A stretch of 48,617 nt of DNA from a virus. The stretch lies in IMG/VR virus record IMGVR_UViG_3300019458_000022; one strand, written 5' to 3'. Made by a program: the position numbers and the translations under genes. The notes under the pieces were generated by a model. The model did not search any database, had not been told where the DNA came from, and saw only the letters and a program-made list of their open reading frames with translations. Below are positions 15,705-41,279 of this stretch, piece by piece; the first letter of the stretch is position 1; the number at the start of each line of letters is the position of its first letter.

Positions 15705-16445
15705 ATGTATATCGACGGCCACCCTCGCGGGCCTCGACGGGATCGCGGGCATTCCCGACACGATCTGGAAGACCATCTCGGATTCTATGGAGGAGGCGCG
15801 GGAGGACTGGGCGATCTCTCGGAAGAGGCATACGGTCGGCCTCCTTATCCCGAGATGGGATACGTGGCCGCGGCGACCGACGCGAAGGGGACGCTCTTCA
15901 ACATCGAGGACTCCGACCGCGGCACGGAAGCGACCGTCGAGAAGATGGCGGAATTGGTCAAGAAGGGGTCGTTCGATCCCTTCGTGATCAAGAACGCCAT
16001 GCGGATCGTCCGCGCCGCTGGAGTTCCCCGGAAGGCTTACCTCAAGGAGATCGAGGCGCTCTTCAGGTACGCGCAGGGAACCCATCCGACGCTTCCCGGC
16101 CTCCGCTACTTCAAGGACACCTGGCACGCGGAGAAGCTCCAGAGCGCGCGGCGCACCGAGGAATTCGGGGGCTCTGATTGTGACGACCTCGTCATTCATC
16201 TCGGTGCCCATCTACTGAGCATAGGGCATGGGCCGATACGCCTGGTGGTGGTCGCCGCAGATCCTCAGCGTCCGGACGAATACTCCCATGTGTACATGTG
16301 GGTCGCTCACCCCGAAGGAAACGCGGTCGATCCAGAAGACGGCTCGCGCTGGATTCCGCTCGACCCGACCGTTGGAAAGCCGATGGGCTGGGAAGTCGAG
16401 AACCCGTTCCGGAAAGCGTACTTCCAGGTGAGCCGTGCCGACTAA
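15705..16445 (+). CDS. Transglutaminase-like (papain-fold) cysteine enzyme, putative maturation protease
   Basis: Catalytic triad motifs GSDCDDL, SHVY, WIPLDPT; begins MYIDG. Confidence 0.75.
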   Translation: MYIDGHPRGPRRDRGHSRHDLEDHLGFYGGGAGGLGDLSEEAYGRPPYPEMGYVAAATDAKGTLFNIEDSDRGTEATVEKMAELVKKGSFDPFVIKNAMRIVRAAGVPRKAYLKEIEALFRYAQGTHPTLPGLRYFKDTWHAEKLQSARRTEEFGGSDCDDLVIHLGAHLLSIGHGPIRLVVVAADPQRPDEYSHVYMWVAHPEGNAVDPEDGSRWIPLDPTVGKPMGWEVENPFRKAYFQVSRAD

Positions 16446-16974
16446 GGCCGCACTCGTCGAGATCGAGGAGGTTCCTTTTGGAATCCGAAAAACCCTGGAG
16501 CAGATGGAAAAGCTTTCAATCCGCGGCGCGCGAGATCCATTCGTCATCATGAACGCGATGAGGCTCGTGAACGCGCTCGGCATCCCCAGGAAGGCTTACC
16601 TCAAGGAGATCGAGGCGCTGCTCCAGTACGCGCAGGGAATCCATCCGGAGTTCGGGGGGCTGCGATACGCGCGCGACCCTCGCGAGGTCATGGAGTCGCC
16701 GCGGATGACCGAGGAGTACGGTCACGGCGACGCCTCGGATCTCGCCGTCTGGCTCGCGGCCCATCTCCTGGCGATCGGGCATGGGCCGGTACGGTTCGTC
16801 GCGATCTCCGCCAAGGATCGTCCGGACGATTTCGTTCACGTCTATCTGCACTACGGGAACCCGGAAGGAAAGCGATTCCGATGGATCGCGCTCGATCCGA
16901 CCGTCGAGGAGCCGATGGGCTGGGAATACCCGGACGCGGCGAAGAAGGTCTACTACGACGTGGGGAAACAGTGA
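16435..16974 (+). CDS. Transglutaminase-like paralogue lacking the catalytic Cys
   Basis: Aligns with the previous gene (DPFVI.NAMR, PRKAYLKEIEAL, HVY, WIALDPT) but has GDASDL in place of SDCDDL. Confidence 0.75.
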   Translation: MPTKAALVEIEEVPFGIRKTLEQMEKLSIRGARDPFVIMNAMRLVNALGIPRKAYLKEIEALLQYAQGIHPEFGGLRYARDPREVMESPRMTEEYGHGDASDLAVWLAAHLLAIGHGPVRFVAISAKDRPDDFVHVYLHYGNPEGKRFRWIALDPTVEEPMGWEYPDAAKKVYYDVGKQ

Positions 16975-17396
16975 TGGGCTTGAGCGGTCGTCAGATCCTG
17001 GCCGGGGTCGGCCTCGTCGGAGCGCTCGCCGGAATCGGCGTTCTCGCAGTCATCAACCGGAAGCGGAGTGACCGGGAGCGCGCGGAGATGGACGGTCTTG
17101 GTCTCGACGCGAAAGGCAGGCGCGCGTACGCCAAGCACGAGGAAGTGAACTGGGGCCGGAAACCCGGCCGCATGATCGTAGTCCGCGAGGGACGTCGCAA
17201 GCGCGACCAGAAGTACCTGGTCGAGATCGGCAACCTGGAGGCGGTCGTCTACCGTTCGCCGAAATCCGGCAACGAGGAGAAGTACCTCCACTTCTTCGAT
17301 TCTCCGAACCCGGTGCTCGCGACGGATTCCAAGGGCAAGCGCCTTTTCATCGTCGGCGGAAAGGCCCAGGTGGACGAGCGGGGAATCGTCGGCTGA
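16974..17396 (+). CDS. Membrane-anchored putative virion protein
   Basis: ATG overlaps the upstream stop; N-terminal hydrophobic helix, MDGLG, then a beta-rich domain. Confidence 0.7.
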   Translation: MGLSGRQILAGVGLVGALAGIGVLAVINRKRSDRERAEMDGLGLDAKGRRAYAKHEEVNWGRKPGRMIVVREGRRKRDQKYLVEIGNLEAVVYRSPKSGNEEKYLHFFDSPNPVLATDSKGKRLFIVGGKAQVDERGIVG

Positions 17397-17407
17397 GCAT
17401 ATTCTAT

Positions 17408-17447
17408 TTGACGTCGAGGTTGGACTCACACTATAATCATGTGAGTC
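17408..17447 (+). promoter_or_regulatory. Sigma70-like promoter with overlapping operator
   Basis: TTGACG-18 nt-TATAAT; the -10 box is flanked by the inverted repeat GACTCACA...TGTGAGTC. Confidence 0.75.
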
Positions 17448-17690
17448 ATGGGAGACTCCTCACCCGAAAGGAGTGGGGAGAAGAGGCGAGAGGACGAGCA
17501 GGCTCGTCTTCTCGAATCGCTCTTTAGGAATGCGAAAGGCTTTGTCTCGCTGTTCGACAAGAGCGGCGTGAGCATGAGCCCGACCATCACGAACGTCTCG
17601 ATGGGGAACATCGAGCTTCGGGAGGACGGGTTCGAGGTCGAGGTGAAGCTCACGCTAAAGCTGTCGATGACCGAGAGGAAACAAAGCTGA
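17448..17690 (+). CDS. Small hypothetical protein in its own transcription unit
   Basis: 80 aa between a promoter and a terminator; no obvious RBS (short leader). Confidence 0.55.
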   Translation: MGDSSPERSGEKRREDEQARLLESLFRNAKGFVSLFDKSGVSMSPTITNVSMGNIELREDGFEVEVKLTLKLSMTERKQS

Positions 17691-17723
17691 AACCCCGCGG
17701 CAGCGCTTAGGCGGCTTCGGTCG

Positions 17724-17794
17724 AAAAGCCCCCTGCGGTGGTTCGGAGGCGGAGATTTCCGCCCGCACGAGCCATCGCAGGGGGTTTTTGTTTT
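17724..17794 (+). terminator. Intrinsic terminator-like structure
   Basis: AAAAGCCCCCTGCG...CGCAGGGGGTTTTTGTTTT with inner stem GGCGGA/TCCGCC. Confidence 0.6.
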
Positions 17795-17832
17795 CCAGGA
17801 AAAACGTTGAGTCAGATTGAAGGAGGATCGGC

Positions 17833-19956: not shown

Positions 19957-20565
19957 ATGCCGCGTCTGACAGGTAAGCGCGAGATCGTCACGGGCTGGAT
20001 CTACGACGCCGCGACGCTCGGTGTCTCCGGGCTCTCCGGCCGTGGATTCCAGATCCCCAACCCGGTGGATACCTGGGATGCGTTCCAGCAGCCCAAGGGC
20101 CAGGCGGGGAAGACCTTCACCCAGACGAACGTCGAGGCGGGCTCCGGGTTCCTCCCGGGCGTCAAGTCGTTCGTCATCAAGTCGGAGGTCTTCAAGGTCG
20201 AGGATTGCAGGCTCTCGGACGACGTCTGCAAGATCATCGACGGCGGCAACGCGACGCTCAAGATCTCGGAGAAGTCGTACCCCTCTCCGATGCCGATCTG
20301 GCTCTTCTCCGGCGGGACGGGCCTCTTCGACAACGTCCGCAGCGCCGCCGCCGCGGCCGGGGACATCCGGGCGACGGTCGGGCCGGGCAACATCGCCAAC
20401 GTGCTGAAGTTGCACCGGGCTCTGCCGGTTCCCATCAACACGCTGGAACCCTTCGTCTTCGAGTTCCGGTGGCAGCCCGCCATCACGATCGGGCCGCAGC
20501 CGACCGAGGACGGCATCCAGGTGTGGGTGGTGCTGTACGGCTTCCTGAAGCGTCAGGTGGCGTAA
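19957..20565 (+). CDS. Candidate major capsid protein (single jelly-roll-like)
   Basis: 202 aa beta-strand pattern (WIYD...QTNV..GSGFLP...FVI...VWVVLYG); very strong RBS GGAGGTGAT; followed by a GC hairpin; directly after the core-protein gene. The fold is inferred. Confidence 0.5.
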   Translation: MPRLTGKREIVTGWIYDAATLGVSGLSGRGFQIPNPVDTWDAFQQPKGQAGKTFTQTNVEAGSGFLPGVKSFVIKSEVFKVEDCRLSDDVCKIIDGGNATLKISEKSYPSPMPIWLFSGGTGLFDNVRSAAAAAGDIRATVGPGNIANVLKLHRALPVPINTLEPFVFEFRWQPAITIGPQPTEDGIQVWVVLYGFLKRQVA

Positions 20566-20605
20566 GCCGCCCGGCTGCGGAAGGAACCGCACTGGTCGAG
20601 TACAA

Positions 20606-20660
20606 GGGGGAGGGCGCGGCCTCCGCGCCCTCCCCCCGCTGTACCTTCCAGGTTTTTTTG
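20606..20660 (+). terminator. GC-rich hairpin after the capsid candidate
   Basis: GGGGAGGGCGCGG-cct-CCGCGCCCTCCCC, with a T-run about 15 nt downstream. Confidence 0.5.
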
Positions 20661-20721
20661 GCCCTCGGCCTTGTAGAGCCTGCCGAGCGGATGAAGGGGT
20701 GGCTCCCCGGAGGACTTTTTT

Positions 20722-21303
20722 GTGCCGAACGAAACGCGCGAAGAAGACCTGGACGTCAGGGCGCTTCTTCGGAAGATCAACAAGAACCAGAACGCGCTTC
20801 ACTCCCGGCTCACGTCGATCGAGCAGCGGGTTTACAAGTACACCGACGACGTCGGCGAGGTCTCGAAGCGCGGACAGGGGATCTTCGAAGACGTCTTCAA
20901 GGTGATCCTCACGGTCGAGTTCACCGAGGCGCTCCAGGTCCAGAGCGACCAGTTCATCACCGCCAGCGACTTCCATTTTGATTACCTGAAGGTCGCGGGC
21001 TTTCCCGAGCAGTTCAGGTCGCGGGTGAATATCCGGTTCAAGGACATCTCCAGCGACGTGGAACTCGTGGGGCGCCGCGATTTTATGCCGCTCGACACGT
21101 TCGCGGGCACGGGAGAACTTCCGTTCGCGGAAGTCGCGCCCCGGCGCTTCGTCGCCCGCGGCGGCATCCTCATGGACTTCCAGGACAACGGGACCATCGA
21201 CGGGGTGACGCCCTCGAACCCGGGCGACTTCCCGTACCGGATCACGATCACGATCCATGGTCTCAAGGTCTTCCTCCAGAGGGTCGAGCGGCAGGGACAG
21301 TAA
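20722..21303 (+). CDS. Putative structural protein (N-terminal helix plus beta-sandwich)
   Basis: 193 aa, GGAGG plus GTG start, alternating beta pattern. Confidence 0.6.
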   Translation: MPNETREEDLDVRALLRKINKNQNALHSRLTSIEQRVYKYTDDVGEVSKRGQGIFEDVFKVILTVEFTEALQVQSDQFITASDFHFDYLKVAGFPEQFRSRVNIRFKDISSDVELVGRRDFMPLDTFAGTGELPFAEVAPRRFVARGGILMDFQDNGTIDGVTPSNPGDFPYRITITIHGLKVFLQRVERQGQ

Positions 21304-21311
21304 GCCCTGCC

Positions 21312-21947
21312 ATGATCGTGAGACGACCGTTCCGCTTCGCGGCAAGCGAAGTGGAGAAGAACCAGAGGTCACACTACGTCCTGAACGACCTCCCCCTGGA
21401 GCACCAGGTCCGCGGAAACGACATCGTCAACACGGTGATCCGCCGGAAGGAGATCGGATTCCGGACTGTCGCCTATCCCGGCGGCGTCATGAAGTACGAG
21501 GAGGCGATCGTCGGCAAGATCCCGGACGAGCACCGGGTCCATCCGGAGGGCCTGGAATCCTACTACCTGCCCGAGATCGTCGCGCCGCCGGACTTCTCCC
21601 AGCCGCTCATCCTGTCGGACACGTTCACGATCCCAGCCTTGGCGTCGAACTTCGTCACGATCGACTTCACGGTGCCGATCGCGCGCGAGGCCGCGATCAA
21701 GACCGCTTTCTTCGAGGTCGCCGACGCCTCGATCGACACGATCAGCTTCAACATCGTCTACGGCGGCATGAAGAGCGAGTTCGCGGTCAATGTCGAGGTC
21801 TCGCCCCTCGAATCCTGGCAGGCGAACATGCGCCTGGACGAGCAGATGCGGGTCGCCGTGCTCGTCACGAACGCGCTCGCGGGCATCCGTTCGGTCCGGG
21901 TGGCGCTGAACGGCTGGATCTACCCGGTCCATAAGAGGGTGGTGTAG
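21312..21947 (+). CDS. Putative beta-rich structural protein
   Basis: 211 aa; C-terminal beta pattern ending VRVALNGWIY, similar to the end of the 19957 protein. Confidence 0.6.
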   Translation: MIVRRPFRFAASEVEKNQRSHYVLNDLPLEHQVRGNDIVNTVIRRKEIGFRTVAYPGGVMKYEEAIVGKIPDEHRVHPEGLESYYLPEIVAPPDFSQPLILSDTFTIPALASNFVTIDFTVPIAREAAIKTAFFEVADASIDTISFNIVYGGMKSEFAVNVEVSPLESWQANMRLDEQMRVAVLVTNALAGIRSVRVALNGWIYPVHKRVV

Positions 21948-21949
21948 CG

Positions 21950-22585
21950 ATGGTCGATACGCTCACCATCTTCTCGAAGCGCGTCAAGGTCCCGGCCAAG
22001 GGCGTCGTATCGAGCAATTTCTGGGTCTCGATCGGCTTCGGCTCGATCCGGGGGATCGCCAACGCCGACAAGGTCGGCCCCGAAAGCCTGGTCCGGATCA
22101 TCCAGGGAATCAATCCGGAGAAGCGGGACCGCCAGCGGGCCATCAAGCTCTTCGATCCGAACTGCGACATCAAGCTCATCGAGCCCGTGTGCTCGCAGCT
22201 TGTGCGCGTGGACTACGAGAACGACCTGGACGAAGAGGTCAACCTTTCGCTCGACGTCGCGCTCTCGAAGCGGCGCGTCGAGCGGGACGAGGTCAAGTAC
22301 CGGGACTTCTTCAACGAGACGCGCACCGTGCTCGCGGGATCGACGTTCGCGCAGAACGAGGTCAACATCCAGGAAGCCCTGGGACGGTCGGTGACGTCGC
22401 TCCACATCCAGCTTCCGACGTCCACGGACCTCGTCAACCTAAAGATCAACGACGAGGGCACGAACCTTTTCGAGGTCATCGGGGAACGTCGCTTCACGCC
22501 CGAGGCCGACCAGTTGGAAATCTGCCGGGTCTTCATCGAGAACCCGGGCGCGGGCAACCTCGACGTGAGAATCTTCGCGACCTGA
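21950..22585 (+). CDS. Putative beta-rich structural protein
   Basis: 211 aa, tight operon spacing. Confidence 0.6.
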   Translation: MVDTLTIFSKRVKVPAKGVVSSNFWVSIGFGSIRGIANADKVGPESLVRIIQGINPEKRDRQRAIKLFDPNCDIKLIEPVCSQLVRVDYENDLDEEVNLSLDVALSKRRVERDEVKYRDFFNETRTVLAGSTFAQNEVNIQEALGRSVTSLHIQLPTSTDLVNLKINDEGTNLFEVIGERRFTPEADQLEICRVFIENPGAGNLDVRIFAT

Positions 22586-22595
22586 TTTAGAGGGC

Positions 22596-24560: not shown

Positions 24561-24923
24561 ATGTACATCAACGAGATCGGCGATCCGAAGCGCAGGAGGC
24601 GGGTGCCTCCTTCATGGGCCGCCGCCAAGGGCTTGAGGCGGAAGTTAAGCGGGCCCGTGGAAGAGGAGGCTCCGCCGGTCGAGGATGTCGTGGCTACCGG
24701 CCCGAAGGACGTCGAGCTTCCCGGGCCCAAGATCGAGCAGTTGCGCCCGACGCGGGCGTACGAAGAGCTTCCGGCGATCCCCGAGTTCGAGTTCGGAGGC
24801 GAAATGGTCCTCCCGGAGGACGTCGAAAAGGTCGCCGAACTTTCGGAGTTCGGCGAGTACCACGCCCAGGACCCGATCGCTCTGCGATCCCTGGAGAACG
24901 CGATCATCAATGGACTTCTCTGA
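24561..24923 (+). CDS. MY-start hypothetical virion protein
   Basis: MYINEIG; C-terminus resembles that of the previous gene. Confidence 0.7.
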   Translation: MYINEIGDPKRRRRVPPSWAAAKGLRRKLSGPVEEEAPPVEDVVATGPKDVELPGPKIEQLRPTRAYEELPAIPEFEFGGEMVLPEDVEKVAELSEFGEYHAQDPIALRSLENAIINGLL

Positions 24924-25774
24924 TGTACGTCAGCGCAATGGAAACGTTCGAGCACGGAGCGCTCGCGGGTGTCACGAGCATCGTGGCGCCCGATGGGCGC
25001 CAGCTTGGAGCAAGCCTCGGGAAGAAGGTGCGGAAGACGGTCAAGCGCGCAGGGAGAGGCGTCAAGCGGATCGCGAAGACGAAAGCCTTCCAGTACGCGA
25101 TGGCGCCCTTCACGGCCGGGATGTCGATCGCATCCGTCCGGAAGGGCGCGAAGAAGGCGCTCGTCAAGTACGGACCGTACGTCGCGATCGCCGCGCAAGC
25201 GCTCAACCTTGTCGTTCCCGGACTGGGAGTGGCGGTGGGCGCGGCGATCGCCGCGGGCTCAACCGCGTTGCAGGCAAAAGAGGCCAAGAAACAGGTGAAG
25301 GAGGCGGAGAAGCAGGCTCTTTCAGCGCAGGCGGCCGAAACCCAGGCGATGGCCGACGAGCAAATGAATAGCGCGTACACGACTGGAGAGAAGTACTTCA
25401 CGGAAAAGTACGGCATGAGCCGGGACAAGTGGACCGCGCTTCCGTACGACGACAAGCTCAAGTTCGTCCAGAACGTCGTCTACGACCAGAACCAGGAACA
25501 GATGGCGGCGGAAGGGGTCACGCGGGAGCAGTTCATGGCGATGCCCGTTGAGGAACAAAACAGCATTGTCGCGGCCCTGGGCGAAACCGAGTTCAAGGAG
25601 CTTAGCTCGGGCGAGCGAAGGAAATTGACCGCCGAACTCGCGTCGGCGGTCGGGGAGCCCGTGCCCGAGGAAGGACTCCTCGGGCTTCCGCTCTGGGCGT
25701 GGCTCGCCATCGGAGGAACCGTCGTTGTCGGGATTCCGGTGGTAGTCATGTTGGCGCGTAGGAAGGCGGCATAG
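24923..25774 (+). CDS. MY-start membrane protein
   Basis: MYVSA; ATG overlaps the upstream stop; internal hydrophobic hairpin and C-terminal TM followed by RRK. Confidence 0.7.
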   Translation: MYVSAMETFEHGALAGVTSIVAPDGRQLGASLGKKVRKTVKRAGRGVKRIAKTKAFQYAMAPFTAGMSIASVRKGAKKALVKYGPYVAIAAQALNLVVPGLGVAVGAAIAAGSTALQAKEAKKQVKEAEKQALSAQAAETQAMADEQMNSAYTTGEKYFTEKYGMSRDKWTALPYDDKLKFVQNVVYDQNQEQMAAEGVTREQFMAMPVEEQNSIVAALGETEFKELSSGERRKLTAELASAVGEPVPEEGLLGLPLWAWLAIGGTVVVGIPVVVMLARRKAA

Positions 25775-25777
25775 CGC

Positions 25778-26035
25778 ATGTACCTCGGATACCAGCCCTA
25801 TACGGTCGCGGGCGCGATGAAGCCCTCGATCCGCCTCAAGGCCATGGCCGGGCTTGGCGAAGTCCCGGTGGTCGTGGTCAAGGACGAGGCCGCGACCGCA
25901 AGTTTCGGGCAGAAGATCACGAGCATGCTTCCCTTCGCAGTCGCGATGGTCGGGGTTTCCGTCGTTTCGAGCCTTGCGGTGTACGCGATCACGAAGCTCA
26001 TCGAGGGGAAAAAAGGCAGGCCGGAGCGCAGGTAG
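25778..26035 (+). CDS. MY-start small membrane protein
   Basis: MYLG...MAGLGE; C-terminal TM and basic tail. Confidence 0.7.
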   Translation: MYLGYQPYTVAGAMKPSIRLKAMAGLGEVPVVVVKDEAATASFGQKITSMLPFAVAMVGVSVVSSLAVYAITKLIEGKKGRPERR

Positions 26036-26056: not shown

Positions 26057-26425
26057 ATGTACATGGGCGTTGTCGAGCGGAGCATCGGGTACCTTTCGAA
26101 CGGCCACTCCGTTCTCACCCAGAAGGTGACGCCGGAGCAAGCGGAGAAGCTCTCCAAGGAGAGCCCCTCGGTCTGGGACAAGATCGTGGAGAACCTCCCG
26201 ACCGTGGTCGCCAAGGGCTACGAGACCTATCTCAAGCTTCGTGGCGAAGGAAAGCCCGCGAAGATCCCACCGCCTGTGAGCGTCCCGGTCTCGGCCTTCG
26301 CGCCGACGCCGACCCCCACGACGCCGGGCTGGGTGCTTCCGGTCACGCTCGGGGTACTCGGTCTGGGCGCTCTCGGGACCGTGGTCTATCTCGCGACTCG
26401 CAAGGGGAACAACAAGAAGAAGTAG
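26057..26425 (+). CDS. MY-start small membrane protein
   Basis: MYMG; Pro/Thr linker; C-terminal TM followed by RK...KKK. Confidence 0.7.
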   Translation: MYMGVVERSIGYLSNGHSVLTQKVTPEQAEKLSKESPSVWDKIVENLPTVVAKGYETYLKLRGEGKPAKIPPPVSVPVSAFAPTPTPTTPGWVLPVTLGVLGLGALGTVVYLATRKGNNKKK

Positions 26426-26427: not shown

Positions 26428-26832
26428 ATGTACGTTTCGGCCATCGAAAAACGCCGTGGCGCCGGGATGGACGGCAGCTTCTACCTCGCCCAGGGCGAGG
26501 AAGAGGAGTTGAAGTCCCTGGAAAAGGCCGCGGCTGGAACGAAGGAAGCCGAGAAGAAGGAAAAGGAGCCTGAGAAACCGGCGTGGCAGAAGGCGGTCGA
26601 AGCCGGAGCGACGGCAGCGGCGGCGATTGCGACAACGGCGATCACGAAGGGCCGGAAGATCGAGCCGGTTCCGCCAGGGGATGAAGAGACCGCGGCTGCG
26701 AGAAGGTTCGCGGCCGGGGAAGGGCTACCCGAGAAGACGTTCATGCAGAAATACGGAGTGATGATCGGAGTCGGCGCTGCCGCGATCGGCGTGCCGACCC
26801 TGCTCTATTTTCTCCTGAGGAAGCCTGCGTAG
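26428..26832 (+). CDS. MY-start small membrane protein
   Basis: MYVSA; C-terminal KYG-TM-RK. Confidence 0.7.
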   Translation: MYVSAIEKRRGAGMDGSFYLAQGEEEELKSLEKAAAGTKEAEKKEKEPEKPAWQKAVEAGATAAAAIATTAITKGRKIEPVPPGDEETAAARRFAAGEGLPEKTFMQKYGVMIGVGAAAIGVPTLLYFLLRKPA

Positions 26833-26834: not shown

Positions 26835-27173
26835 ATGTACATGAACGGAAGCGGCATCGGCCAGTGGGCGGACATCATTTCCGCGGTCGTTCCGGCTCTC
26901 GCCAAGGTCGGGACGTCGGTCTACGGGGCGAAAGTTACGAAAGACATCATCAAGAAGCAGGAAAAATCGGCGATCCAGCAGGCCCAGCTTGCGCTCAAGG
27001 CCCAGCAGGCGGCTCTGGCGGCCCAAATGGCACAGGAAAAGCGGGCGGCCGACGCCGAGAAGAGCTTCTTCGAGAAGTACGGCCTCTACATCGGGATCGG
27101 CGTGGCCGCGGTCGGGATTCCGGTCGCGGTTCTTCTGGCGATGCCGAAGGCGAAGGAAAAGAAGTCGAAATGA
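26835..27173 (+). CDS. MY-start small membrane protein
   Basis: MYMNGSGIGQ; C-terminal KYG-TM-basic tail. Confidence 0.7.
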   Translation: MYMNGSGIGQWADIISAVVPALAKVGTSVYGAKVTKDIIKKQEKSAIQQAQLALKAQQAALAAQMAQEKRAADAEKSFFEKYGLYIGIGVAAVGIPVAVLLAMPKAKEKKSK

Positions 27174-28024
27174 GCCGGTACATCGGAGCCGAGGACAAGG
27201 TGCTGACCGAGGACGACGACGACGTCGAGAAGGTCGAAGGCGAGGTGCTGTTCGAGGCACAGACGCCCTACCAGAAGATCTGCCTCTTCGTCGAGCGGAA
27301 CGGCTCGGTCTCGCTCACCCTCGACAAGTACTGGCAGTTCTACGGGCCCGAGGAGCACATCTACCACGAATCGCTCATGACGGTCCCGATGCTCATCGCC
27401 AAGCGGATCAAGGACGTCGTCATCCTGGGAGGCGGCGACGGGCTCGCCGTCCGGGAGGCGCTCCGGTTCCAGGAACTCCGGAAAGTATGCCTCGTCGAAC
27501 TGGACCCCTCGATGATCCGGATGGCCCGGGAGCACCCCGTCATGCGGTCGCTCAACCGGGACGCTCTCCAGAACAAGAGGGCGGAAGTCTACGCGATGGA
27601 CGCGCAGCGTTTCCTCAAGGACAACCGGAAGTGTTTCGACGTCATCGTCTGCGACTTCCCGGACCCCACGAGCCCGGTGATCGCGCAGCTTTTCTCGAAA
27701 GCCTTCTACCGGGAGGTCGCCGGACACCTCGCTCCCGGAGGCGTGGTGTCCGTCCAGGGGTCGAGCCCGTCGAGCGAACTCGATTTCGTGACCACCTACG
27801 TCAATCTCGCGTCGGTGTTCCCCTATGTCCGGCCGTACGCGCCGGTCATGCCGACCATGGGAATGGCCGGGATGTTCGTCGCGTCGGATGCGCCGATCAA
27901 GATGCGCCGGGGTTTCCCTGAAGGGCTCAGGTTCCTGAACAAGAAGACCATGGACGACATGTTCGATCGCGGGTCGGCGATCGGGAAGGCGCTTTTGTCC
28001 AAGTACGACGCCCTTTTGGCTTAG
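27170..28024 (+). CDS. speE: Spermidine synthase / polyamine aminopropyltransferase
   Basis: QTPYQKI, EHIYHESL, VILGGGDG, VELDP, DAQRF, FDVIVCDFPDP, LFSKAFY, LAPGG. Confidence 0.9.
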   Translation: MSRYIGAEDKVLTEDDDDVEKVEGEVLFEAQTPYQKICLFVERNGSVSLTLDKYWQFYGPEEHIYHESLMTVPMLIAKRIKDVVILGGGDGLAVREALRFQELRKVCLVELDPSMIRMAREHPVMRSLNRDALQNKRAEVYAMDAQRFLKDNRKCFDVIVCDFPDPTSPVIAQLFSKAFYREVAGHLAPGGVVSVQGSSPSSELDFVTTYVNLASVFPYVRPYAPVMPTMGMAGMFVASDAPIKMRRGFPEGLRFLNKKTMDDMFDRGSAIGKALLSKYDALLA

Positions 28025-28033: not shown

Positions 28034-28363
28034 GTGTACATCAGCGACGTCGAAAAGCGCGCCAAGGGACGGCTGCTCCAGCAGCGGGACGGAAAGCCCG
28101 CCAAGCGCATCCCGAGGTCCGCCGTGCGGAAGGCGCTGGAGAACGCGATCCTGGCGCTCGACCGCGTCATGAACGACCTCGACGTCGTCGTCGAGGACTT
28201 CTGGACCGACGAGGACGGGAAGCCGCTCACGAAGGGGCTTCCGGCCAAGAACCACTCGATCGACGCGGCCGACCAGCTTTATCTCGCGAAGAACAAGCTC
28301 TATCGGGCGATCCGGCTCCTGGAGAACGCGGGCCGGGGAAACGTCGCGGAGGAGGCGCACTAA
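28034..28363 (+). CDS. MY-start helical hypothetical protein
   Basis: GTG start after GAGG, (M)YISD. Confidence 0.65.
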   Translation: MYISDVEKRAKGRLLQQRDGKPAKRIPRSAVRKALENAILALDRVMNDLDVVVEDFWTDEDGKPLTKGLPAKNHSIDAADQLYLAKNKLYRAIRLLENAGRGNVAEEAH

Positions 28364-29019
28364 TGTACCTCTCCGGCACGAATTCGAGCCTGGCGCAGGC
28401 GGTGCTGAAGGAGATCCCGCCGGGTCTCCTCAAGAAGACCGCCGAGGACGAGGCCCGGAAATACAACGAGGCCAAGTACAAGGACGCCTACTTCCGCAAG
28501 CGCGTGGCCGAACTCATGAAGCTCCATGACGACGTGCTCGCGGACGTGAAGAAGTACGAGGAGAAGGCCCGCGAGATCGGGGACGAGAACTTGAGGCTGA
28601 AGGCTCTCAAGGAGATCTCGAAGGCCGTACACCGGCTGTCCCTCATGAAGCGGCTGCTCTCGGAAATGAAGCCGGGGGCGAACGCTTCCGTGAACGGCAT
28701 CCATGGTCTTGGAAACGCCGGATTCTGGGCGACGCTCGCCCAAAACCCGGCGACCGTGTTCGTGGCCCCCATCGGATTCGCCATCGCCATCGGTCTCGGA
28801 GCCGCGCTCATCTCCGGACTGGAGCACATCAAGGAGATCATTCCGGCCGTGAGCACCGCGCTTAAAATCGCGGTCGCGGTCGTCGGGGTTTCCGCCGGAG
28901 TTCTCGGCGTCATCTGGATGGCACGGATCATCCGCGACATCTGGGAGGCCGACAAGAAAGAGAAGAAGGTCGAAGCGGAAAGGCCCAGGACGCCGATCGT
29001 GTCGCCCAGGACGCCATAA
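28363..29019 (+). CDS. MY-start coiled-coil protein with two TM segments
   Basis: MYLSG; IHGLG precedes two TMs; ends ARIIRDIWE. Confidence 0.7.
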   Translation: MYLSGTNSSLAQAVLKEIPPGLLKKTAEDEARKYNEAKYKDAYFRKRVAELMKLHDDVLADVKKYEEKAREIGDENLRLKALKEISKAVHRLSLMKRLLSEMKPGANASVNGIHGLGNAGFWATLAQNPATVFVAPIGFAIAIGLGAALISGLEHIKEIIPAVSTALKIAVAVVGVSAGVLGVIWMARIIRDIWEADKKEKKVEAERPRTPIVSPRTP

Positions 29020-29040: not shown

Positions 29041-29634
29041 ATGTACGCGAACGTCGGAAACGTGGCCATGATGGGAGCGCTCGGTCAGACGGGCGAGGAG
29101 ATCCACGCCCGCGCGGCCAGGCTCATCAAGGAGTACGAGACGCTTCTCGATACGGCCAAGCGCATCAAGAGCGACGAGGCCGTGAAGGAACTCGTCGGCC
29201 GCTTCGGGATCGGGCGACCCAAGGACGAGCGGACGCCTGACTACTACTACGTGAACGTGAAGAGCTACTACGACCGGGCGGTCGCGGCCGTGCCGACGAA
29301 CTACGCGATCTGGAAAGCCGGATCGCGGCCGATCAACCGTGTCGAGGGCCTCTCCGACGCCATCAAGGATCTGGAGCCCCGGGTCAAGGACGCGGCGTCG
29401 CGTTTCGGCCTGATGCCCGGAGTCCCTCCCAAGGAGATCATCCGGGAAGAGAAGGTGATCGAGAGGTTCATCGAGCAGGAGTTCCTGGGGCTCCCGGTCA
29501 AGACCTGGCTCTACATCTCGGGGGGCGTCGCCGCGACCGGCGTCCTTGTCGGAATCATCATCGCGGCGACGAAGTCGGCTCCCGCGGGACGGAGGAAGGC
29601 GGCGATGGGCGGGATGGGACGGATGGGGCATTGA
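29041..29634 (+). CDS. MY-start membrane protein
   Basis: MYANV...MGALGQ; C-terminal TM. Confidence 0.7.
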   Translation: MYANVGNVAMMGALGQTGEEIHARAARLIKEYETLLDTAKRIKSDEAVKELVGRFGIGRPKDERTPDYYYVNVKSYYDRAVAAVPTNYAIWKAGSRPINRVEGLSDAIKDLEPRVKDAASRFGLMPGVPPKEIIREEKVIERFIEQEFLGLPVKTWLYISGGVAATGVLVGIIIAATKSAPAGRRKAAMGGMGRMGH

Positions 29635-30655: not shown

Positions 30656-30730
30656 CCGGGGGTTCCGAACCTGGAGAGTTAGACACGGGGCCTGGAGAAC
30701 GGCTCAAGGACTGCCGAAGGAAGGTGCGAC

Positions 30731-31123: not shown

Positions 31124-31200
31124 GCGGAGGTTCGCAACAGATGGGCTAGGCATGGAGCCTGGCCGGAAGTTTTACGCGGATTGTTGAAGGAGGATGCAGC

Positions 31201-31599
31201 ATGGCAGGGTTCGCGCACACTCTTGTGGCCTCGGTCACCGGCGTGGGTCCGCTCACGTTCACGGCGATCGAAGACGAGGGGGCCACGATCACCCCGGGTC
31301 TGACGGAGTTCGTGTTCCCGAACTCGGGTCGCGTCTCCCAGGTCCAGGTGGTCGATGCCTCGAACAGCGCCGGTGCCTTCTCCTACCGCCTGAAGTACAA
31401 GGGGGACAGCGGCACCGTGAAGCTCATCGACGTCGTGTCCGCGGCGGCGGGCGAGGTCTTGAAGAGCTTCGCCATCGAGAGCCCGCTCCTCGAAGTCAGG
31501 GGAAACGGCACCCGGGCGCTGCTGGCCGAAGCCATCGTCGCGGGCGGCGCGACGCCGGACGGCTGCCTCGTCGTCATCGTCGTCGAGCGGGAGACCTAG
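31201..31599 (+). CDS. Beta-rich structural protein, tandem paralogue 3
   Basis: Aligns end to end with the 30257 and 30731 proteins. Confidence 0.8.
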   Translation: MAGFAHTLVASVTGVGPLTFTAIEDEGATITPGLTEFVFPNSGRVSQVQVVDASNSAGAFSYRLKYKGDSGTVKLIDVVSAAAGEVLKSFAIESPLLEVRGNGTRALLAEAIVAGGATPDGCLVVIVVERET

Positions 31600-31693: not shown

Positions 31694-32254
31694 ATGTACC
31701 TGGCGGCTGGAGAAGACGACCTGGATGCGCCTCCGGTCCCCAAGCTCGCGAAGGAAATGGGGATTCCGGCGAAGGTCTTGCAGTCCGCCTTGGACAAGGA
31801 GAGAGAGGCGCTCAAGCAAGCGCCGAACAAGCTCAAGTTCCTGCGGGAACGGCTGGTCAGCGCAAGGGAGGGGCTCGACCGCGCGGAGAAGGAGCTTCTC
31901 GACCTGAAGGCGAGAGCGAAGGCTGCGCACGACCCTGGCCGCAGAGCCGCAGCGCTCCGTGCGATCGAGGAATTCGAGAGGAAAATTTCGAAAGCGAGGG
32001 CCATGCTCAAGGAGGCCGCCGGAAACGTGGGGCTCGGCGTATGGTTCATCCCGATCATGGGGATCATCACGGCCGGGGCCACGATCTGGCTCTTCTTCGA
32101 GAACAAGGACAAGCTCGGCGACCTTATCGGGAAATCCTCGGACGCTCTCGTCATAGGCGCGTATACGGCCGCGATCGGCGTGGGCCTGATCGGAATGATC
32201 TATTTCGCGAGGCTCGCGAGGGACATCTGGGAGCCCAAGAAGGCGGAGAGATAA
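31694..32254 (+). CDS. MY-start coiled-coil protein with two TM segments (paralogue of 28363)
   Basis: MYLAAG; VGLG precedes two TMs; ends ARLARDIWE. Confidence 0.7.
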   Translation: MYLAAGEDDLDAPPVPKLAKEMGIPAKVLQSALDKEREALKQAPNKLKFLRERLVSAREGLDRAEKELLDLKARAKAAHDPGRRAAALRAIEEFERKISKARAMLKEAAGNVGLGVWFIPIMGIITAGATIWLFFENKDKLGDLIGKSSDALVIGAYTAAIGVGLIGMIYFARLARDIWEPKKAER

Positions 32255-32256: not shown

Positions 32257-32856
32257 ATGTACATCGGAAACGCGCGCCCGTCACGGCTCGGCGTGCTCGT
32301 CGAGCTTTCGCCGAATCCGAAGGCAGGTTTTTCCGCGTCCATTCCCTACATCGCCGGTGCGGCCGTAGGTCTCGTCGGACAGTCCGTGATCCCCGGGGAA
32401 TCGACGGGCGCCAAGGTGGCCAAGACCGTGCTCCTTCTCGGAGGTCTCACGTCCGCGGGGCTTGCGCTCTATCAGATCGCCAAACCCGTGGGCGCCCCGG
32501 AATCGAAGGCAGGATACGACCTCAAAGACCTGTTCGTGACGAGCGAACCCGGCTGGAGGCTTTTCGGAACGCCTCGGATCGACCTCAAGATCACGAACAA
32601 GAGCGACAAGGCCAAGGATCTAGTCATCCGGGCGGGACAGTACGAGGACAAGATCTCGGACCAGACCAGGGAGGTCGAACTCGCACCCGTTTCCATGGCG
32701 CTCGGTCCGGGGGAGACCAAGGCCCACGAGTTTTTCCTGTCGGTTCCGGCCTTCTGGACGTCTGCCAGGATCGTGAGCTTCAACATTCTTGATGCCAAGA
32801 CAAATGAATTGGTTGCGACCTACGACGCTAGGTTCCCGGCGAGGTTCGAGATCTAG
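32257..32856 (+). CDS. MY-start membrane protein with Ig-like C-terminal domain
   Basis: MYIG; two hydrophobic segments; GWRLFGTPRIDL beta domain. Confidence 0.7.
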   Translation: MYIGNARPSRLGVLVELSPNPKAGFSASIPYIAGAAVGLVGQSVIPGESTGAKVAKTVLLLGGLTSAGLALYQIAKPVGAPESKAGYDLKDLFVTSEPGWRLFGTPRIDLKITNKSDKAKDLVIRAGQYEDKISDQTREVELAPVSMALGPGETKAHEFFLSVPAFWTSARIVSFNILDAKTNELVATYDARFPARFEI

Positions 32857-34575: not shown

Positions 34576-35022
34576 ATGTACATCGGACAGGCACCGGCGC
34601 AAACGATCGTCCGGATTCCCGTCTGGCTCAAGGTCATGGACATTCCGCTCGCGGGCCAGAAGGAGGGAGCGCCCATCTACGAGGCGCAGGCGTCCTACGC
34701 GATCAGCGTTCAGCCCGGCGTCTGGACCGACTACGGGGGGGAAGTCCCGTCCGACCGGGAAGGGAAGATCCATTTCGACGACGTCCCGGTTTCGGCGACC
34801 GTGGGCGACACGAAGGTGCCGGTCCAGAAGGTCCGTTTCAAGATCAGGAAAGAAGGGTATGACCCGCAGGTCGTCGAGGTGCTGCCGACCGCGGTCCCCA
34901 AGTCGATCGACCTCGTGCTCAAGAAGACCGGATACGTATTCAAGTGGTGGCATGTGGCGGTGCCCGTGTTTGGAACGGGCCTCACCGTTCTCATCTGGCG
35001 TCTGGCAACACGGGGACGGTAG
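34576..35022 (+). CDS. MY-start membrane protein with prealbumin/PEGA-like beta domain
   Basis: MYIGQ; SDREGKIHF, IRKEGY; FKWW-TM. Confidence 0.65.
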   Translation: MYIGQAPAQTIVRIPVWLKVMDIPLAGQKEGAPIYEAQASYAISVQPGVWTDYGGEVPSDREGKIHFDDVPVSATVGDTKVPVQKVRFKIRKEGYDPQVVEVLPTAVPKSIDLVLKKTGYVFKWWHVAVPVFGTGLTVLIWRLATRGR

Positions 35023-36434: not shown

Positions 36435-36818
36435 ATGTACCTCTCGATGATGACGGGTCAAGGGCGCAGGATGAACGGCGCGCGGACGAACATGTCCGCG
36501 CTCGCCGGGATCATGAATCCCGCGCTCGGACAGGTCGCGCTCCCGTTCACTTCTGTCAAGGACCCGACGACGTTCCTCATGGGCGCCGGGCTTGCCGGAG
36601 TCGGGCTCGCGCTCGGAGTCGGTGCCATGGGTGCCCTTTTCTTCCTCGGTACGGCGCTCGAAGCGAAATCGAAGCTCGTCAAGGTCACGGGCTATGCGCT
36701 TTCGGTGACGAGCGGCGTCGGGCTCCTTCTGGCGATCGCGGGTCTCATCGGAGGTCTCATGCAGAAGAAGGCTGCGGCACCGCAGGCCCAGGCCGAAAAG
36801 ACTACGGAGACGGTATAG
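36435..36818 (+). CDS. MY-start protein with two TM segments
   Basis: MYLSM...ALAG...ALGQ. Confidence 0.7.
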   Translation: MYLSMMTGQGRRMNGARTNMSALAGIMNPALGQVALPFTSVKDPTTFLMGAGLAGVGLALGVGAMGALFFLGTALEAKSKLVKVTGYALSVTSGVGLLLAIAGLIGGLMQKKAAAPQAQAEKTTETV

Positions 36819-36832: not shown

Positions 36833-37255
36833 ATGTACGTGAACGGGACCTTGAAGGTGGCGGGCGCGCTCGGGAACCCGACCGTTCTCGGCGCTCGCCG
36901 TTCTCGGATCGGACAGGCTCCCTCCGAGAACGCCGGAACCATCGTCCCGAAGGTAGGACCGTTCGGATTGGCGCCGTTGCCTACGGGCCTGATCTTCATC
37001 GCGGGCGGAGCCGTCGCCGGAATCCTCGGGACCTATTGGAGCCGCCGACGCACGACGATCCTCGGCAAGAAGGTCTCCACGTTCTGGAACTTGCAGTTCG
37101 GCACCGGCGGAATCGGGATAGCGATGGCATGGCTCGCCGCGTTTCCCATGATCCTGACCGGCGCCGGGTATATCGTCCTTCATTTATTCATGAAGTACGG
37201 ACTTGGGGAGTTGGAGAAGGCCGCAGCCGCTCCCGCTCCAAAAACCCAGGGATGA
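36833..37255 (+). CDS. MY-start protein with two TM segments
   Basis: MYVNG...ALG..VLG..RIGQ. Confidence 0.7.
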   Translation: MYVNGTLKVAGALGNPTVLGARRSRIGQAPSENAGTIVPKVGPFGLAPLPTGLIFIAGGAVAGILGTYWSRRRTTILGKKVSTFWNLQFGTGGIGIAMAWLAAFPMILTGAGYIVLHLFMKYGLGELEKAAAAPAPKTQG

Positions 37256-37964: not shown

Positions 37965-38780
37965 ATGTACGTCAGCCTCGCTGGAACGTCCCGGATGGGG
38001 GCGCTCGGCCGGACCTATCCGGAAGAGATCGAATCGACGATCCGTAACATCGGCATGTCGCTCGATCTCATCATGGACTCGACGCTCAACCTGCCCCCGG
38101 GCGAGCAGAAGGGAGTGATCGAGAAGGTTCGCTCGCTCAACGCGCAACTGACGAATGAGATCGTCGTCCCGAGCGACCAACTTTCGGACGAAGAAGCGAA
38201 ACACCGGCTCTGGAAGATCTCCACCGACCTCTTCGCTCTCGAAGGGATCTTCCGCAAGGCCGGGGTCGAACTGAAGCCGCTTCCGATGGAGCCGACCACG
38301 ACCGGTACCGCGACGATTCCGCGGGCCGACGCGAAGGCCCTGTCCGACCGGTACAAGGAGGCATTCACGCTCTTCCCGAACCTCCAGAATCGCTGGCCGC
38401 CGATGCGGGCGTTCGCGGTCAAGATGGCGCCCCTGCCTTTCATCGGCCCGCTCTTCGTCGCGCTCACGAACGCGATCGACCAGCGGATGAAATGGCTGGA
38501 CAACAACCTTCTTCCGGTGGACAAGCTCATCAATGATCTCAAGGTCCAGATCGACGCCGGGACCGACCCCATCCGCTTCGACCGGAACGCCTTCGACCGG
38601 CTTCGTACGTGGATCGGGTCCGTGTTCTCGATGGAGGACAAGATCAAGCGCCTGGAAGGCGAGTTCCTGAAGAAGGCAGATCCCTACAAGGCGCCGATCC
38701 CCTGGGGAAAGATCGGCCTCGTGGCCGCGGGGACCACCGTGTTCGTAGGAGGTCTCTGGTATCTCCTCAAGAGGGCGTAA
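37965..38780 (+). CDS. MY-start helical protein with C-terminal TM
   Basis: MYVSLAG...MGALGR; IPWGKIGLVAAG-TM-KR. Confidence 0.7.
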   Translation: MYVSLAGTSRMGALGRTYPEEIESTIRNIGMSLDLIMDSTLNLPPGEQKGVIEKVRSLNAQLTNEIVVPSDQLSDEEAKHRLWKISTDLFALEGIFRKAGVELKPLPMEPTTTGTATIPRADAKALSDRYKEAFTLFPNLQNRWPPMRAFAVKMAPLPFIGPLFVALTNAIDQRMKWLDNNLLPVDKLINDLKVQIDAGTDPIRFDRNAFDRLRTWIGSVFSMEDKIKRLEGEFLKKADPYKAPIPWGKIGLVAAGTTVFVGGLWYLLKRA

Positions 38781-38792
38781 GGAGAGGTCATC

Positions 38793-39626: not shown

Positions 39627-39638
39627 AGAGAGGAAGCT

Positions 39639-40214
39639 ATGTACGTCGGCGACGAACCGGCCAGGAAAAAGAGCTTCTGCGGGAGGCATCCCGACGCGGA
39701 GTTCATGGGGAAGGCGCCGGAGGAGCAGTTCCTGGGCGGAGACCTTCTCGTCATCGAGGGTCTAGACCATCTGAACGAGGTCGGACAGCCGATCGGCCCC
39801 TACGAGCCCGACTACCGTCCGGACCTGGTTCCCTGGGTGACCAAGCCGTCCACGAACCATTTCGCGGCCTATCGGAGGGCCAAGGACGGCCGCTACTGGG
39901 GGCCCGGAAACCAGTATCTCCCTGGATTTCCCCCGGCCCATCTCTATCCGGAATGCGACATCTGGCCGGAAAGCGCGATCGCTGGCATCCACGGCATCGA
40001 CGACCTCGGACTTCATGAGGAGGCTGAGCAGGAACGGGCTCTCGCGATCGCGAAGAGCCAGTATCGGGTCGCCAAGGACGCGAAGACGAGAGGGCAGATG
40101 GAGATATTCAACGAGCAGGTCGGCTTCCTGAGAGGCGTGAAACGACTCGCGGAAGTCGAAGGGGCGGCGCGGCTTGAGACCGAAGTCCACCGGATGATCC
40201 AGGACTTGGGGTGA
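39639..40214 (+). CDS. MY-start hypothetical protein
   Basis: MYVGD; PDAEFMG, PEEQFLG. Confidence 0.7.
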   Translation: MYVGDEPARKKSFCGRHPDAEFMGKAPEEQFLGGDLLVIEGLDHLNEVGQPIGPYEPDYRPDLVPWVTKPSTNHFAAYRRAKDGRYWGPGNQYLPGFPPAHLYPECDIWPESAIAGIHGIDDLGLHEEAEQERALAIAKSQYRVAKDAKTRGQMEIFNEQVGFLRGVKRLAEVEGAARLETEVHRMIQDLG

Positions 40215-40218
40215 AGCG

Positions 40219-40488
40219 ATGTCCTTGGGATTTCATTTGGCCTACGAACGCGAACGGGCCTGGGACAGAGCGAGGGTCTACTACGACAATGCCGTCCAGG
40301 CCGTCGCGATGGACTTGCCGAATCAGGAGGAAACGGTCTTCAAGGCCCTTGGCTACGTCCAGGCGATTCTCGACGCGATGAGCGATCTTGAAGATGTCGA
40401 TCCCAGGGAGGAGGATGCGGTAGCCGATTTCCAGGAGGATCTGACGGATCTCATCCGCTACCTCCGAGCATTCGTTAAAGCCTCCTGA
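40219..40488 (+). CDS. Small acidic helical protein
   Basis: 89 aa, in operon. Confidence 0.6.
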   Translation: MSLGFHLAYERERAWDRARVYYDNAVQAVAMDLPNQEETVFKALGYVQAILDAMSDLEDVDPREEDAVADFQEDLTDLIRYLRAFVKAS

Positions 40489-40519
40489 TCTTTGCGGTGT
40501 GTTTTTTCGTGGAGGTCGT

Positions 40520-40960
40520 ATGAAGAAGGGCGCATGGGTCGCGTTCCTGGTGCTGGTGATGGCTGGGATGGGCTGGGCAGTCGTCCAGAACGCCGCTCCT
40601 CCGGCCGCGGAAGCCCAACCGCTCGCGAACACCCTGGGGCTCAAGGGGCTCGTCAAGGGTCTCCTCATCGGGGCCGTTGTCGGGGCTCTCGTCGCTCTCG
40701 CGGGATGGGCGAAGGACAAAGACAAGAAGCAGTGGGATTGGGACCAGGCCGCCCCGACCCTCATCTGGGGCGCGATCGTGGGAGCCCTTGCGGGCATGGG
40801 CCAGAAGGACATCGGGGACCTTGACGCGCTCAAGGACAACGCGGCCTACGTGATCATCGCCGAGCTTCTCGGGAAGGTCGGCTTCCGGAAGGGCGCGCCG
40901 GTCATCGGGAACGTCGTTGCGACGTTCCTGGGAAAGAAACCGGAGGCGCCAAAGTCGTAA
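40520..40960 (+). CDS. Multi-TM membrane protein (possible holin)
   Basis: GGAGG before MKKGAW; signal-like N-terminus and further hydrophobic segments. Confidence 0.6.
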   Translation: MKKGAWVAFLVLVMAGMGWAVVQNAAPPAAEAQPLANTLGLKGLVKGLLIGAVVGALVALAGWAKDKDKKQWDWDQAAPTLIWGAIVGALAGMGQKDIGDLDALKDNAAYVIIAELLGKVGFRKGAPVIGNVVATFLGKKPEAPKS

Positions 40961-41033
40961 ACCCGAATCCCCGTTAGGAGCAAACGATGCCTGGGGGAAT
41001 GGGCGTGAGTTCCCCCAGGCATTTTTAGATCGG

Positions 41034-41279
41034 ATGTATCTGGCTCAGTTGGTCATGGCGCCCAATCGGCCCTCGATCCTGGTCGGCGCAAAAAGCATCG
41101 GCCCGGAGATCAAGGAGGCGTTGCCCTATTTCATAAAACCGGTCGAGCAACTAGGGCCGAAAGAGCTTTACTGGGAGATCCAGGAGATCCGTCCCATCGG
41201 AGGCGTCGGAAATTCCGATGTGGATGATCTCATCGAGTTCTCGGATCTTGTCGGTCTGGAATTCACGGAATGGCCGTAA
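41034..41279 (+). CDS. MY-start small protein
   Basis: MYLAQ; 81 aa; weak RBS. Confidence 0.45.
   Translation: MYLAQLVMAPNRPSILVGAKSIGPEIKEALPYFIKPVEQLGPKELYWEIQEIRPIGGVGNSDVDDLIEFSDLVGLEFTEWP

Follow-up and report, generated by a model that had tools for sequence, protein, structure and literature searches.

Why should so many otherwise unrelated late proteins of a single virus begin with the same few residues? The DNA considered here is a stretch of 48,617 nucleotides (IMG/VR virus record IMGVR_UViG_3300019458_000022; the whole stretch is hereafter the window), which represents the right-hand 48.6 kb of a ~175-kb metagenome contig of a large, uncultured bacterial virus, with the same genes found in a second assembly of 168,645 bp. 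A first-pass annotation, made from the letters alone, had singled out 19 genes between positions 15,705 and 41,279 whose products start Met-Tyr-[ILVMA], and had proposed that this start addresses proteins to the assembling particle or membrane and is then removed or cross-linked by a viral cysteine enzyme. Here, we describe the shared start as a four-residue tag, M-Y-[ILVM]-[GSNA], that recurs in related genomes and is selected as a peptide, and we posit, with a probability of roughly one half, that it serves as an N-terminal address or docking tag for proteins of the assembling particle.

Occurrence of the Met-Tyr start

The genes of the window fall into two arms, with minus-strand genes left of ~13 kb devoted to replication and repair (SNF2 and UvrD helicases, a PD-(D/E)XK nuclease, DnaJ and DUF5131 proteins), and ~47 tightly packed plus-strand genes from 13,176 onward that constitute the late module. 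All 19 starts proposed at the outset hold: each consists of ATG (GTG at 28034), TAY and a hydrophobic codon, and none had to be reassigned, as the gene calls stored with the public assembly place them identically. An in-frame stop lies 3–21 nt upstream of the start in nine tagged genes, so that these cannot begin further 5', and a GGAG-type ribosome-binding site precedes most of the set; the least secure start is that at 41034, with a weak ribosome-binding site and an upstream in-frame TTG at 40917.

Statistically, the bias is pronounced. Tyr constitutes 2.6% of residues, and the probability of meeting it at position 2 in at least 19 of 47 proteins is 3e-18; the tag is carried by 19 of the 47 late genes (~40%) versus none of the 29–31 early genes (Fisher p = 1.8e-5), and of the 28 RTGTAY sites on the plus strand of the window, 19 are gene starts. 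Its absence from left-arm genes extends to 18 genes past the window's left edge (contig L011), and the capsid-like, collagen and glycosyltransferase genes of the late module are also without it, as had been reported. The tagged proteins are indeed mostly unrelated, with only a few paralogous relationships among them (28363 and 31694; the C-termini of 26428 and 26835). Other paralogue pairs differ in tag presence (15705 versus 16435, 32257 versus 32857, and 34576 versus 35035), and with carriers that include soluble enzymes as well as membrane proteins, the tag appears, from sequence, to be portable.

Topologically, the tagged proteins had been characterized as mostly bearing C-terminal transmembrane (TM) anchors without a classical signal peptide. 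The second part stands, since residues 5–30 are polar or Gly-rich and TM segments are C-terminal, and the first needs qualifying: such anchors are found in 12–14 of the 19 tagged proteins, but also in 12 of 28 untagged late proteins, and are therefore a tendency rather than a rule. Known export signals (Sec, Tat, lipoprotein and prepilin) were considered and rejected, as there is no basic n-region with an h-region, no twin-Arg, no lipobox Cys and no Gly followed by a hydrophobic helix. We found no description of an M-Y tag in the published literature.

Conservation in related genomes

Relatives were reached via homologues of the tagged enzyme (15705) and of the 32857 product, and make up three lineages at ~57–60% protein identity. 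Three of them (L004, L006 and L005) share ~57% protein identity with the window, a fourth (L003) encodes an enzyme 77% identical to that of the window, and two contigs (L002 and L008) represent two stretches of one more distant element, whose enzyme is 61% identical. The same start bias is present in these genomes. Sixteen tagged starts lie within 15 kb of L004, where they make up 16 of its 18 RTGTAY sites; 12 are found in L008 and L002 together, two in L005, and six among the called genes of L006, which also has a seventh ATGTACATCGGC site at 7821 with no open reading frame (ORF) listed there. Across orthologues whose overall identity ranges from 26 to 77%, M-Y is kept in ~32 of 36 cases, with residues after the tag changing freely and leaders differing in length. 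The 28034 family starts M-Y-I-[SG] in all six known lineages.

Some departures from the usual form are informative in themselves. M-S-Y and M-A-L-Y-I-D (both L008) and M-S-R-Y-I-G (the spermidine synthase of the window) keep Tyr-aliphatic-small near the end of the protein, so that the core of the tag would be Y-aliphatic-small at or near the N-terminus, with a free Met-Tyr end usual and not obligatory. Evolutionarily, the tag is specific to a clade and not a trait of the enzyme family, since only four of the 147 top enzyme-family representatives start M-Y. One distant homologue (P0078) starts M-Y-L-S, on a contig (L010) without tagged neighbours, but that contig ends before any late module and is uninformative in this respect.

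Composition and codon usage of the tag

A pooled set of 46 tagged genes (those of the window plus two relatives) reveals that the tag is longer than first noted, namely M-Y-[ILVM]-[GSNA]: 44 of the 46 have L, I, V or M at position 3, where Phe never occurs, and 43 have G, S, N or A at position 4, followed by mostly D, E, G or A at position 5 and mostly aliphatic or small residues at position 6. Structurally, the AlphaFold2 (AF2) model of the 28034 product places residues 1–4 in a free overhang ahead of a helix at 5–18, which suggests that the small residue at position 4 is a hinge or helix cap following a hydrophobic end of three residues.

From a coding perspective, selection on the tag acts on the peptide. 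Codon 2 is TAC in 16 window genes and TAT in three, a mixture that had been remarked upon and that matches the background share of TAT (18% of internal Tyr codons). In codons 2 and 3, the first two positions are rich in information; the wobble positions of codons 3–6 carry 0.3, 0.1, 0.06 and 0.05 bits, respectively. Leu at position 3 is coded by CTC, CTG, CTA, CTT and TTG, Ser at position 4 by AGC, TCC and TCG, and the small-residue class at position 4 as a whole by unrelated codons (GGN, AGC, TCN, AAC and GCN). The displaced variants M-S-R-Y-I-G and M-A-L-Y-I-D keep the peptide while moving it off the AUG, and the region upstream of tagged starts contains only a purine-rich Shine-Dalgarno signal that also precedes untagged genes. 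The proposal of a peptide-level signal is thus borne out by free wobble positions, mixed Leu and Ser codons and background TAT usage, and conservation is not confined to the nucleotide level.

A second motif in the tagged leaders

Most tagged proteins had also been described as continuing into a short leader that ends x-[LIM]-G, which we evaluated against composition-preserving shuffles of residues 5–45. Tagged proteins of the window contain 23 [LIM]G sites (12.1±3.0 in shuffles, p ~0.001) and eight [LIM]G[QEDN] sites (2.1±1.4, p ~0.001), and tagged proteins of all three loci contain 17 of the latter (4.5 in shuffles); the untagged N-termini of the window have 14 [LIM]G sites (14.7 in shuffles) and no [LIM]G[QEDN] site (2.2 in shuffles). 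The longer motif is hence about four-fold enriched in this region, in tagged proteins only. "Most", though, was too generous, as a clear early [LIM]G[QEDNR] site is found in ~10 of the 19 and none at all in four. The site can follow the tag immediately (M-Y-I-G-Q) or at a distance; in the 26835 family, leader length varies over three lineages and the body after G-Q/F is conserved. A comparison of [LIM]G density between residues 5–45 and the rest of each protein gave no enrichment, and is uninformative because Gly/Leu-rich TM segments confound it.

The residue after the motif Gly varies among paralogues and orthologues (Q, E, D, N or R). Cross-linking via Gln, one of the two fates that had been proposed for the leader, is therefore unlikely as a general mechanism, which leaves the other, proteolytic removal, to be weighed together with the enzyme itself.

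The tagged transglutaminase-fold enzyme and its inactive paralogue

As had been claimed, the cysteine enzyme encoded at 15705 is itself tagged (M-Y-I-D). The tag is absent from the inactive paralogue encoded at 16435. The orthologues P0002, P0003 and P0006 of the 15705 enzyme all start M-Y-[IL]-S, and these proteins are built of an indel-rich, variable leader of ~50–60 residues that keeps one G-[LIF]-G, followed by a conserved core in which Cys159, His195 and Asp220 are nearly invariant over 127 homologues. In the AF2 model, residues 1–60 are disordered and the core has a predicted local distance difference test (pLDDT) score >95. Its nearest folds by Foldseek are the putative cysteine protease 3ISR, LapG, the pseudomurein endoisopeptidase PeiP and the CPR-C4 protease (matches include 4U65, 4FGP and 8Z4F), with Rad4/PNGase and true transglutaminases ranked lower (E ~5e-4 to 1e-2). 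At the sequence level the 15705 protein has no Pfam match and no match to DUF920, and LapG reaches E = 0.62 in a PDB profile search; more distant homologues match PF01841 (Transglut_core), not DUF920. The family as a whole comprises 6,015 representatives at E <= 1e-3, and the enzyme has ~2,900 homologues at E <= 1e-10. Among 20 distant transglutaminase-family representatives, G-[LIMF]-G occurred five times in the N-terminal extensions against 3.0±1.8 expected, a non-significant result from an underpowered comparison.

The active (Cys) and inactive (Ala) genes overlap, both in the window (15705–16974) and in the distant relative (L002 10001-11247, P0006/P0008), and this retained pairing suggests a two-subunit enzyme or an enzyme with a pseudo-enzyme partner.

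Proposed role of the tag and alternative explanations

How might such a tag work? In the docking role that we propose, Met-Tyr-aliphatic would form a three-residue hydrophobic overhang followed by a hinge or helix-cap residue, and a common partner in the assembly pathway (the capsid shell, a scaffold or the protease itself) would recognize it, so that tagged proteins would collect where the particle or its membrane patch is being formed. Roughly half of these proteins have a flexible linker, variable in length, whose final [LIM]-G-[QEDN] would be a processing site; that this site is cut by the co-encoded, self-tagged 15705 enzyme is a tentative suggestion that we put forward with some doubt. 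Accessibility of the tag is predicted by the models, with the 15705 leader disordered and residues 1–4 of the 28034 product overhanging. More speculatively, if the N-termini are cytoplasmic and the viral membrane derives from a patch of the cell membrane, the tags would point towards the capsid shell and the basic C-termini towards the DNA, an orientation that would suit docking.

Several considerations weigh against the docking role and the processing step attached to it. Four residues are very short for a specific address, and the tag is lost outright in two L008 genes, the orthologues of 31694 (M-H-L) and 37965 (M-L-N). The variants M-S-R-Y-I-G, M-A-L-Y-I-D and M-S-Y indicate that a free Met-Tyr end is not strictly required. 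[LIM]G sites are absent from four of the 19 tagged proteins and are gained or lost between orthologues, and the transglutaminase fold would also suit a cross-linker, an amidase or a cell-wall hydrolase. None of the proteins of Salisaeta phage SSIP-1, the only cultured distant relative, starts M-Y. Finally, we infer both the membership of the tagged proteins in the particle and the partner of the tag, the latter only as a candidate.

At the head of the late module lies a gene (13176-15587) for an 803-residue, Met-rich coiled-coil protein, which has no family match and is 47% identical to its counterpart in the distant relative; its product is a candidate scaffold or tag receptor.

Among the alternatives, the tag could be an uncleaved structural hook of the finished particle, inserted, for example, among lipid headgroups or into a neighbouring subunit, with the [LIM]G sites being flexible linkers only. 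That some tagged proteins have no G site and keep their N-terminus as a conserved part of the body (the 28034 family), and that G sites come and go between orthologues, is what such a hook would predict. We nevertheless regard it as unlikely, because soluble enzymes also carry the tag (that of the transglutaminase fold and the spermidine synthase), set off by long, disordered, indel-rich leaders, an arrangement that a removable or addressing segment fits better than a structural element.

A second alternative, which we hold to be somewhat less probable still, is that the tag determines the fate of the protein or nascent chain, through early elongation, peptidyl-tRNA drop-off or stability (N-degron-like or protective), for late proteins made in bulk. 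Met aminopeptidase does not cut before large residues, and a Tyr at position 2 thus blocks removal of the initiator Met; selection limited to the first four to five residues, and a tag on membrane and soluble proteins alike, would both fit. However, the genes with the highest GC content at third codon positions (GC3), which are probably those most expressed (the capsid-like genes at 19957-23261 and a trio of genes starting M-A-G-F), are without the tag, and M-S-R-Y-I-G and M-A-L-Y-I-D keep Y-aliphatic-small with residue 2 changed, so that any effect depending on residue 2 would be undone. The co-enrichment of [LIM]G[QEDN] would also be left unexplained.

Third, the conserved element could reside in the RNA, as an operator AUGUAYNU bound by a translational repressor or activator of late genes. 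T4 RegA, which binds at start codons, would be the model for this. Nucleotides 1–5 and 8 are almost invariant, and six starts in the window form the palindrome ATGTACAT, yet the conservation is codon-periodic with free wobble, the class at position 4 is drawn from unrelated codons, Phe (UUY) never occurs at position 3 though NUN would permit it, the tag persists behind GUG starts, the peptide is retained away from the AUG in displaced variants, and no extra signal is found upstream, all of which makes an operator highly improbable. Least credible of all is a functionless remnant of descent from a few ancestral genes: although a few tagged genes are paralogues (28363/31694 and the C-termini of 26428/26835), most tagged proteins are without detectable mutual similarity, and four residues fixed across lineages at 26–77% identity while their neighbours change freely indicate purifying selection.

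Comparison with known systems

In the late module, no protein of the window or of the relatives examined has a Pfam or PHROG match to any tailed-phage hallmark; specifically, no large late protein there matches a prohead serine protease, portal, terminase or HK97-fold capsid protein. The recognizable late products are a collagen-repeat protein, a ConA-like lectin domain, a GT2-TPR-methyltransferase fusion, a spermidine-synthase-like enzyme and the transglutaminase-like pair, and many others are small proteins ending in a TM helix and then Lys/Arg. DNA and protein searches of a phage collection gave no match, IMG/VR scans with two queries found no relative, and one related contig is placed in an NCBI bin labelled Vicinamibacteria.

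In principle, the closest known counterpart is the capsid targeting sequence (CTS) on the internal proteins of phage T4, which is ~10 residues long, ends L/I-x-E and is removed by the prohead protease gp21. As in T4, and in the propeptides of giant phages of the phiKZ/SPN3US type, a short N-terminal peptide stands here on unrelated late proteins, and the CTS is followed by a short consensus site for the viral protease, where the window has its candidate [LIM]-G site. The T4 protease, however, is a serine enzyme of the herpesvirus/HK97 type, whereas the candidate here has a transglutaminase fold, and the T4 particle has a tailed head without a membrane, whereas most carriers here are tail-anchored membrane proteins and the tag is four residues long. 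The CTS suffices to load foreign proteins into the T4 head (PMC3012670).

The nearest enzyme precedent is LapG, a proven protease of this fold that removes an N-terminal piece of its substrate at small residues (Ala108/Ala109; PMC3032545). The Cys-His-Asp triad on a transglutaminase-like fold is common to LapG, with the other bacterial transglutaminase-like cysteine proteinases (BTLCP), and the 15705 enzyme. LapG is periplasmic, is regulated by LapD and c-di-GMP, and has a single adhesin substrate, whereas the 15705 enzyme is cytoplasmic and self-tagged, has an inactive paralogue as its partner, and would act on many substrates.

A third parallel is offered by adenovirus, whose protease adenain cuts at (M/I/L)XGG-X and (M/I/L)XGX-G, and core proteins of African swine fever virus (ASFV) and poxviruses are also processed during maturation. 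Here too, a tailless, icosahedral-type virus would have many particle proteins trimmed by a cysteine protease at short Gly sites near their ends. Adenain, though, belongs to the Ulp1/CE clan, a fold unrelated to that of the sole cysteine-enzyme candidate here, and the register of [LIM]G[QEDN], for all its enrichment in tagged leaders, differs from the adenain consensus. Any likeness between the two systems would be convergent.

Salisaeta phage SSIP-1, of the tailless, membrane-containing kind, is the only cultured virus with a detectable link to the window. The 15705/16435 pair is weakly homologous to its structural protein gp34 (E = 5e-7 and 3e-5, from a small database), and SSIP-1 likewise encodes many small tail-anchored proteins with basic ends, several of which have G-L-G or G-M-G in their N-terminal regions, as well as two ~210-residue genes where the window has 21312 and 21950. 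The differences are considerable, with a genome of 44 kb against ~175 kb for the element here, and with gp34 itself being C-terminally membrane-anchored. Apart from gp34, no significant protein match was found between SSIP-1 and the window, including none to gp45/gp46, with which jelly-roll major capsid proteins were sought; an Atlas look-up of the 21312 product returned weak beta-sandwich leads only.

In its fullest form, which we consider rather doubtful as a whole, the proposal would be that a four-residue code with an optional [LIM]-Gly cut site sorts and matures the membrane proteome of a large prokaryotic tailless virus, and that a transglutaminase-fold cysteine protease, itself tagged and accompanied by an inactive partner, both reads and trims this code. 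If so, bacterial viruses would possess an independently evolved equivalent of adenovirus and T4 maturation, one that would account for the way in which viral membrane proteins come together in the virus-specific membrane patch. We know of no account of how membrane-containing phages choose the proteins of their internal viral membrane, and an apparently portable peptide tag on ~40% of late genes, soluble enzymes included, provides a directly testable handle on this selection. We are also aware of no prokaryotic member of this virus lineage with a maturation protease. In the published model, such a protease is a eukaryotic acquisition (PMC6260650); if the 15705 enzyme is a processing protease, prokaryotic tailless viruses would have one of their own. 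In practice, the tag can be used as a marker for annotating virion genes in an otherwise unannotatable clade.

Tagged genes and other features of the window

The tagged and related genes are collected in Table 1. The presence of a spermidine/spermine synthase among them suggests that polyamine synthesis is tied to particle assembly or DNA condensation.

Table 1 Tagged genes of the late module, with related genes, and the evidence for each (coordinates are those of the window).
Coordinates	Strand	Feature	Evidence
15705..16445	+	Cys-His-Asp enzyme of transglutaminase fold; M-Y-I-D; ~60-residue leader with G-G-L-G-D	Orthologues, AF2, Foldseek
16435..16974	+	Untagged enzyme paralogue; catalytic Cys replaced by Ala; no leader; 50% identical to 15705	Sequence comparison
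24561..24923	+	Tagged; M-Y-I-N; early I-G-D	Sequence
24923..25774	+	Tagged; M-Y-V-S; C-terminal TM and basic tail	L004 orthologue likewise M-Y-V-S
25778..26035	+	Tagged; M-Y-L-G; G-L-G-E at residues 25–28; TM	Tag kept in L004 with GTG start; L008 variant M-S-Y
26057..26425	+	Tagged; M-Y-M-G; tail-anchored	Sequence
26428..26832	+	Tagged; M-Y-V-S; tail-anchored; without [LIM]G site	Sequence
26835..27173	+	Tagged; M-Y-M-N then G-I-G-Q; tail-anchored	L008 M-A-L-Y-I-D
27170..28024	+	Spermidine/spermine-synthase-like; displaced tag M-S-R-Y-I-G	PF01564 7e-35; L004 orthologue M-Y-L-G
28034..28363	+	Tagged; GTG start (fMet-Y-I-S); soluble helical protein	Six lineages M-Y-I-[SG]; AF2
28363..29019	+	Tagged; M-Y-L-S; two TM segments	Sequence
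29041..29634	+	Tagged; M-Y-A-N then A-L-G-Q; tail-anchored	Leader length lineage-dependent; L008 without G site
31694..32254	+	Tagged; M-Y-L-A; paralogue of 28363	L008 orthologue M-H-L
32257..32856	+	Tagged; M-Y-I-G-N	Untagged paralogue 32857-33795 with different, invariant N-terminus
34576..35022	+	Tagged; M-Y-I-G-Q	Same tag in L004 and L006
35918..36418	+	Tagged; M-Y-L-Q; tail-anchored	Sequence
36435..36818	+	Tagged; M-Y-L-S then A-L-G-Q at ~residue 32; two TM	Sequence
36833..37255	+	Tagged; M-Y-V-N then A-L-G-N; two TM	Sequence
37965..38780	+	Tagged; M-Y-V-S then A-L-G-R; C-terminal TM	Tag kept in L006; L008 M-L-N
39639..40214	+	Tagged; M-Y-V-G; soluble	L008 orthologue M-Y-I-N
41034..41279	+	Tagged; M-Y-L-A	Gene caller agrees; small M-Y-V-N gene likewise placed ahead of the collagen gene in L008

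Beyond the tag, a second very conserved N-terminal element was observed in the untagged membrane protein encoded at 32857-33795, whose first 25 residues, with much Tyr, Phe and Gly, do not vary among five lineages, one of which, the distant one, is 32% identical over the rest of the protein. The M-A-G-F trio (30257-31599) consists of three tandem paralogues that are 62–77% identical, all start M-A-G-F, and have a hydrophobic C-terminus and very high GC3; a gene of related size precedes them at 29709, and one or two such genes are present in relatives.

A TAG at 23259 and a TGA at 23286 separate two ORFs that share a frame (22596-23261 and ~23307-24548). The orthologue is a single ORF of 626 residues in L004 and 480 residues in L008, and the gene is either naturally split or disrupted in the window. 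Reading TAG as a sense codon fails to join the two parts, because the TGA follows 27 nt further on. In the early arm, two DUF5131 paralogues (493-1200 and 1856-2743) that are 32% identical flank a Cys-rich, zinc-finger-like gene. With regard to genome form, the 341-kb contig Ga0214473_10000007, from which L007 and L008 derive, carries the late region twice, in identical copies spaced 151,716 bp apart, and a separate assembly of that element measures 151,788 bp, which identifies the contig as a concatemer of a ~151.7-kb genome that is circular or terminally redundant.

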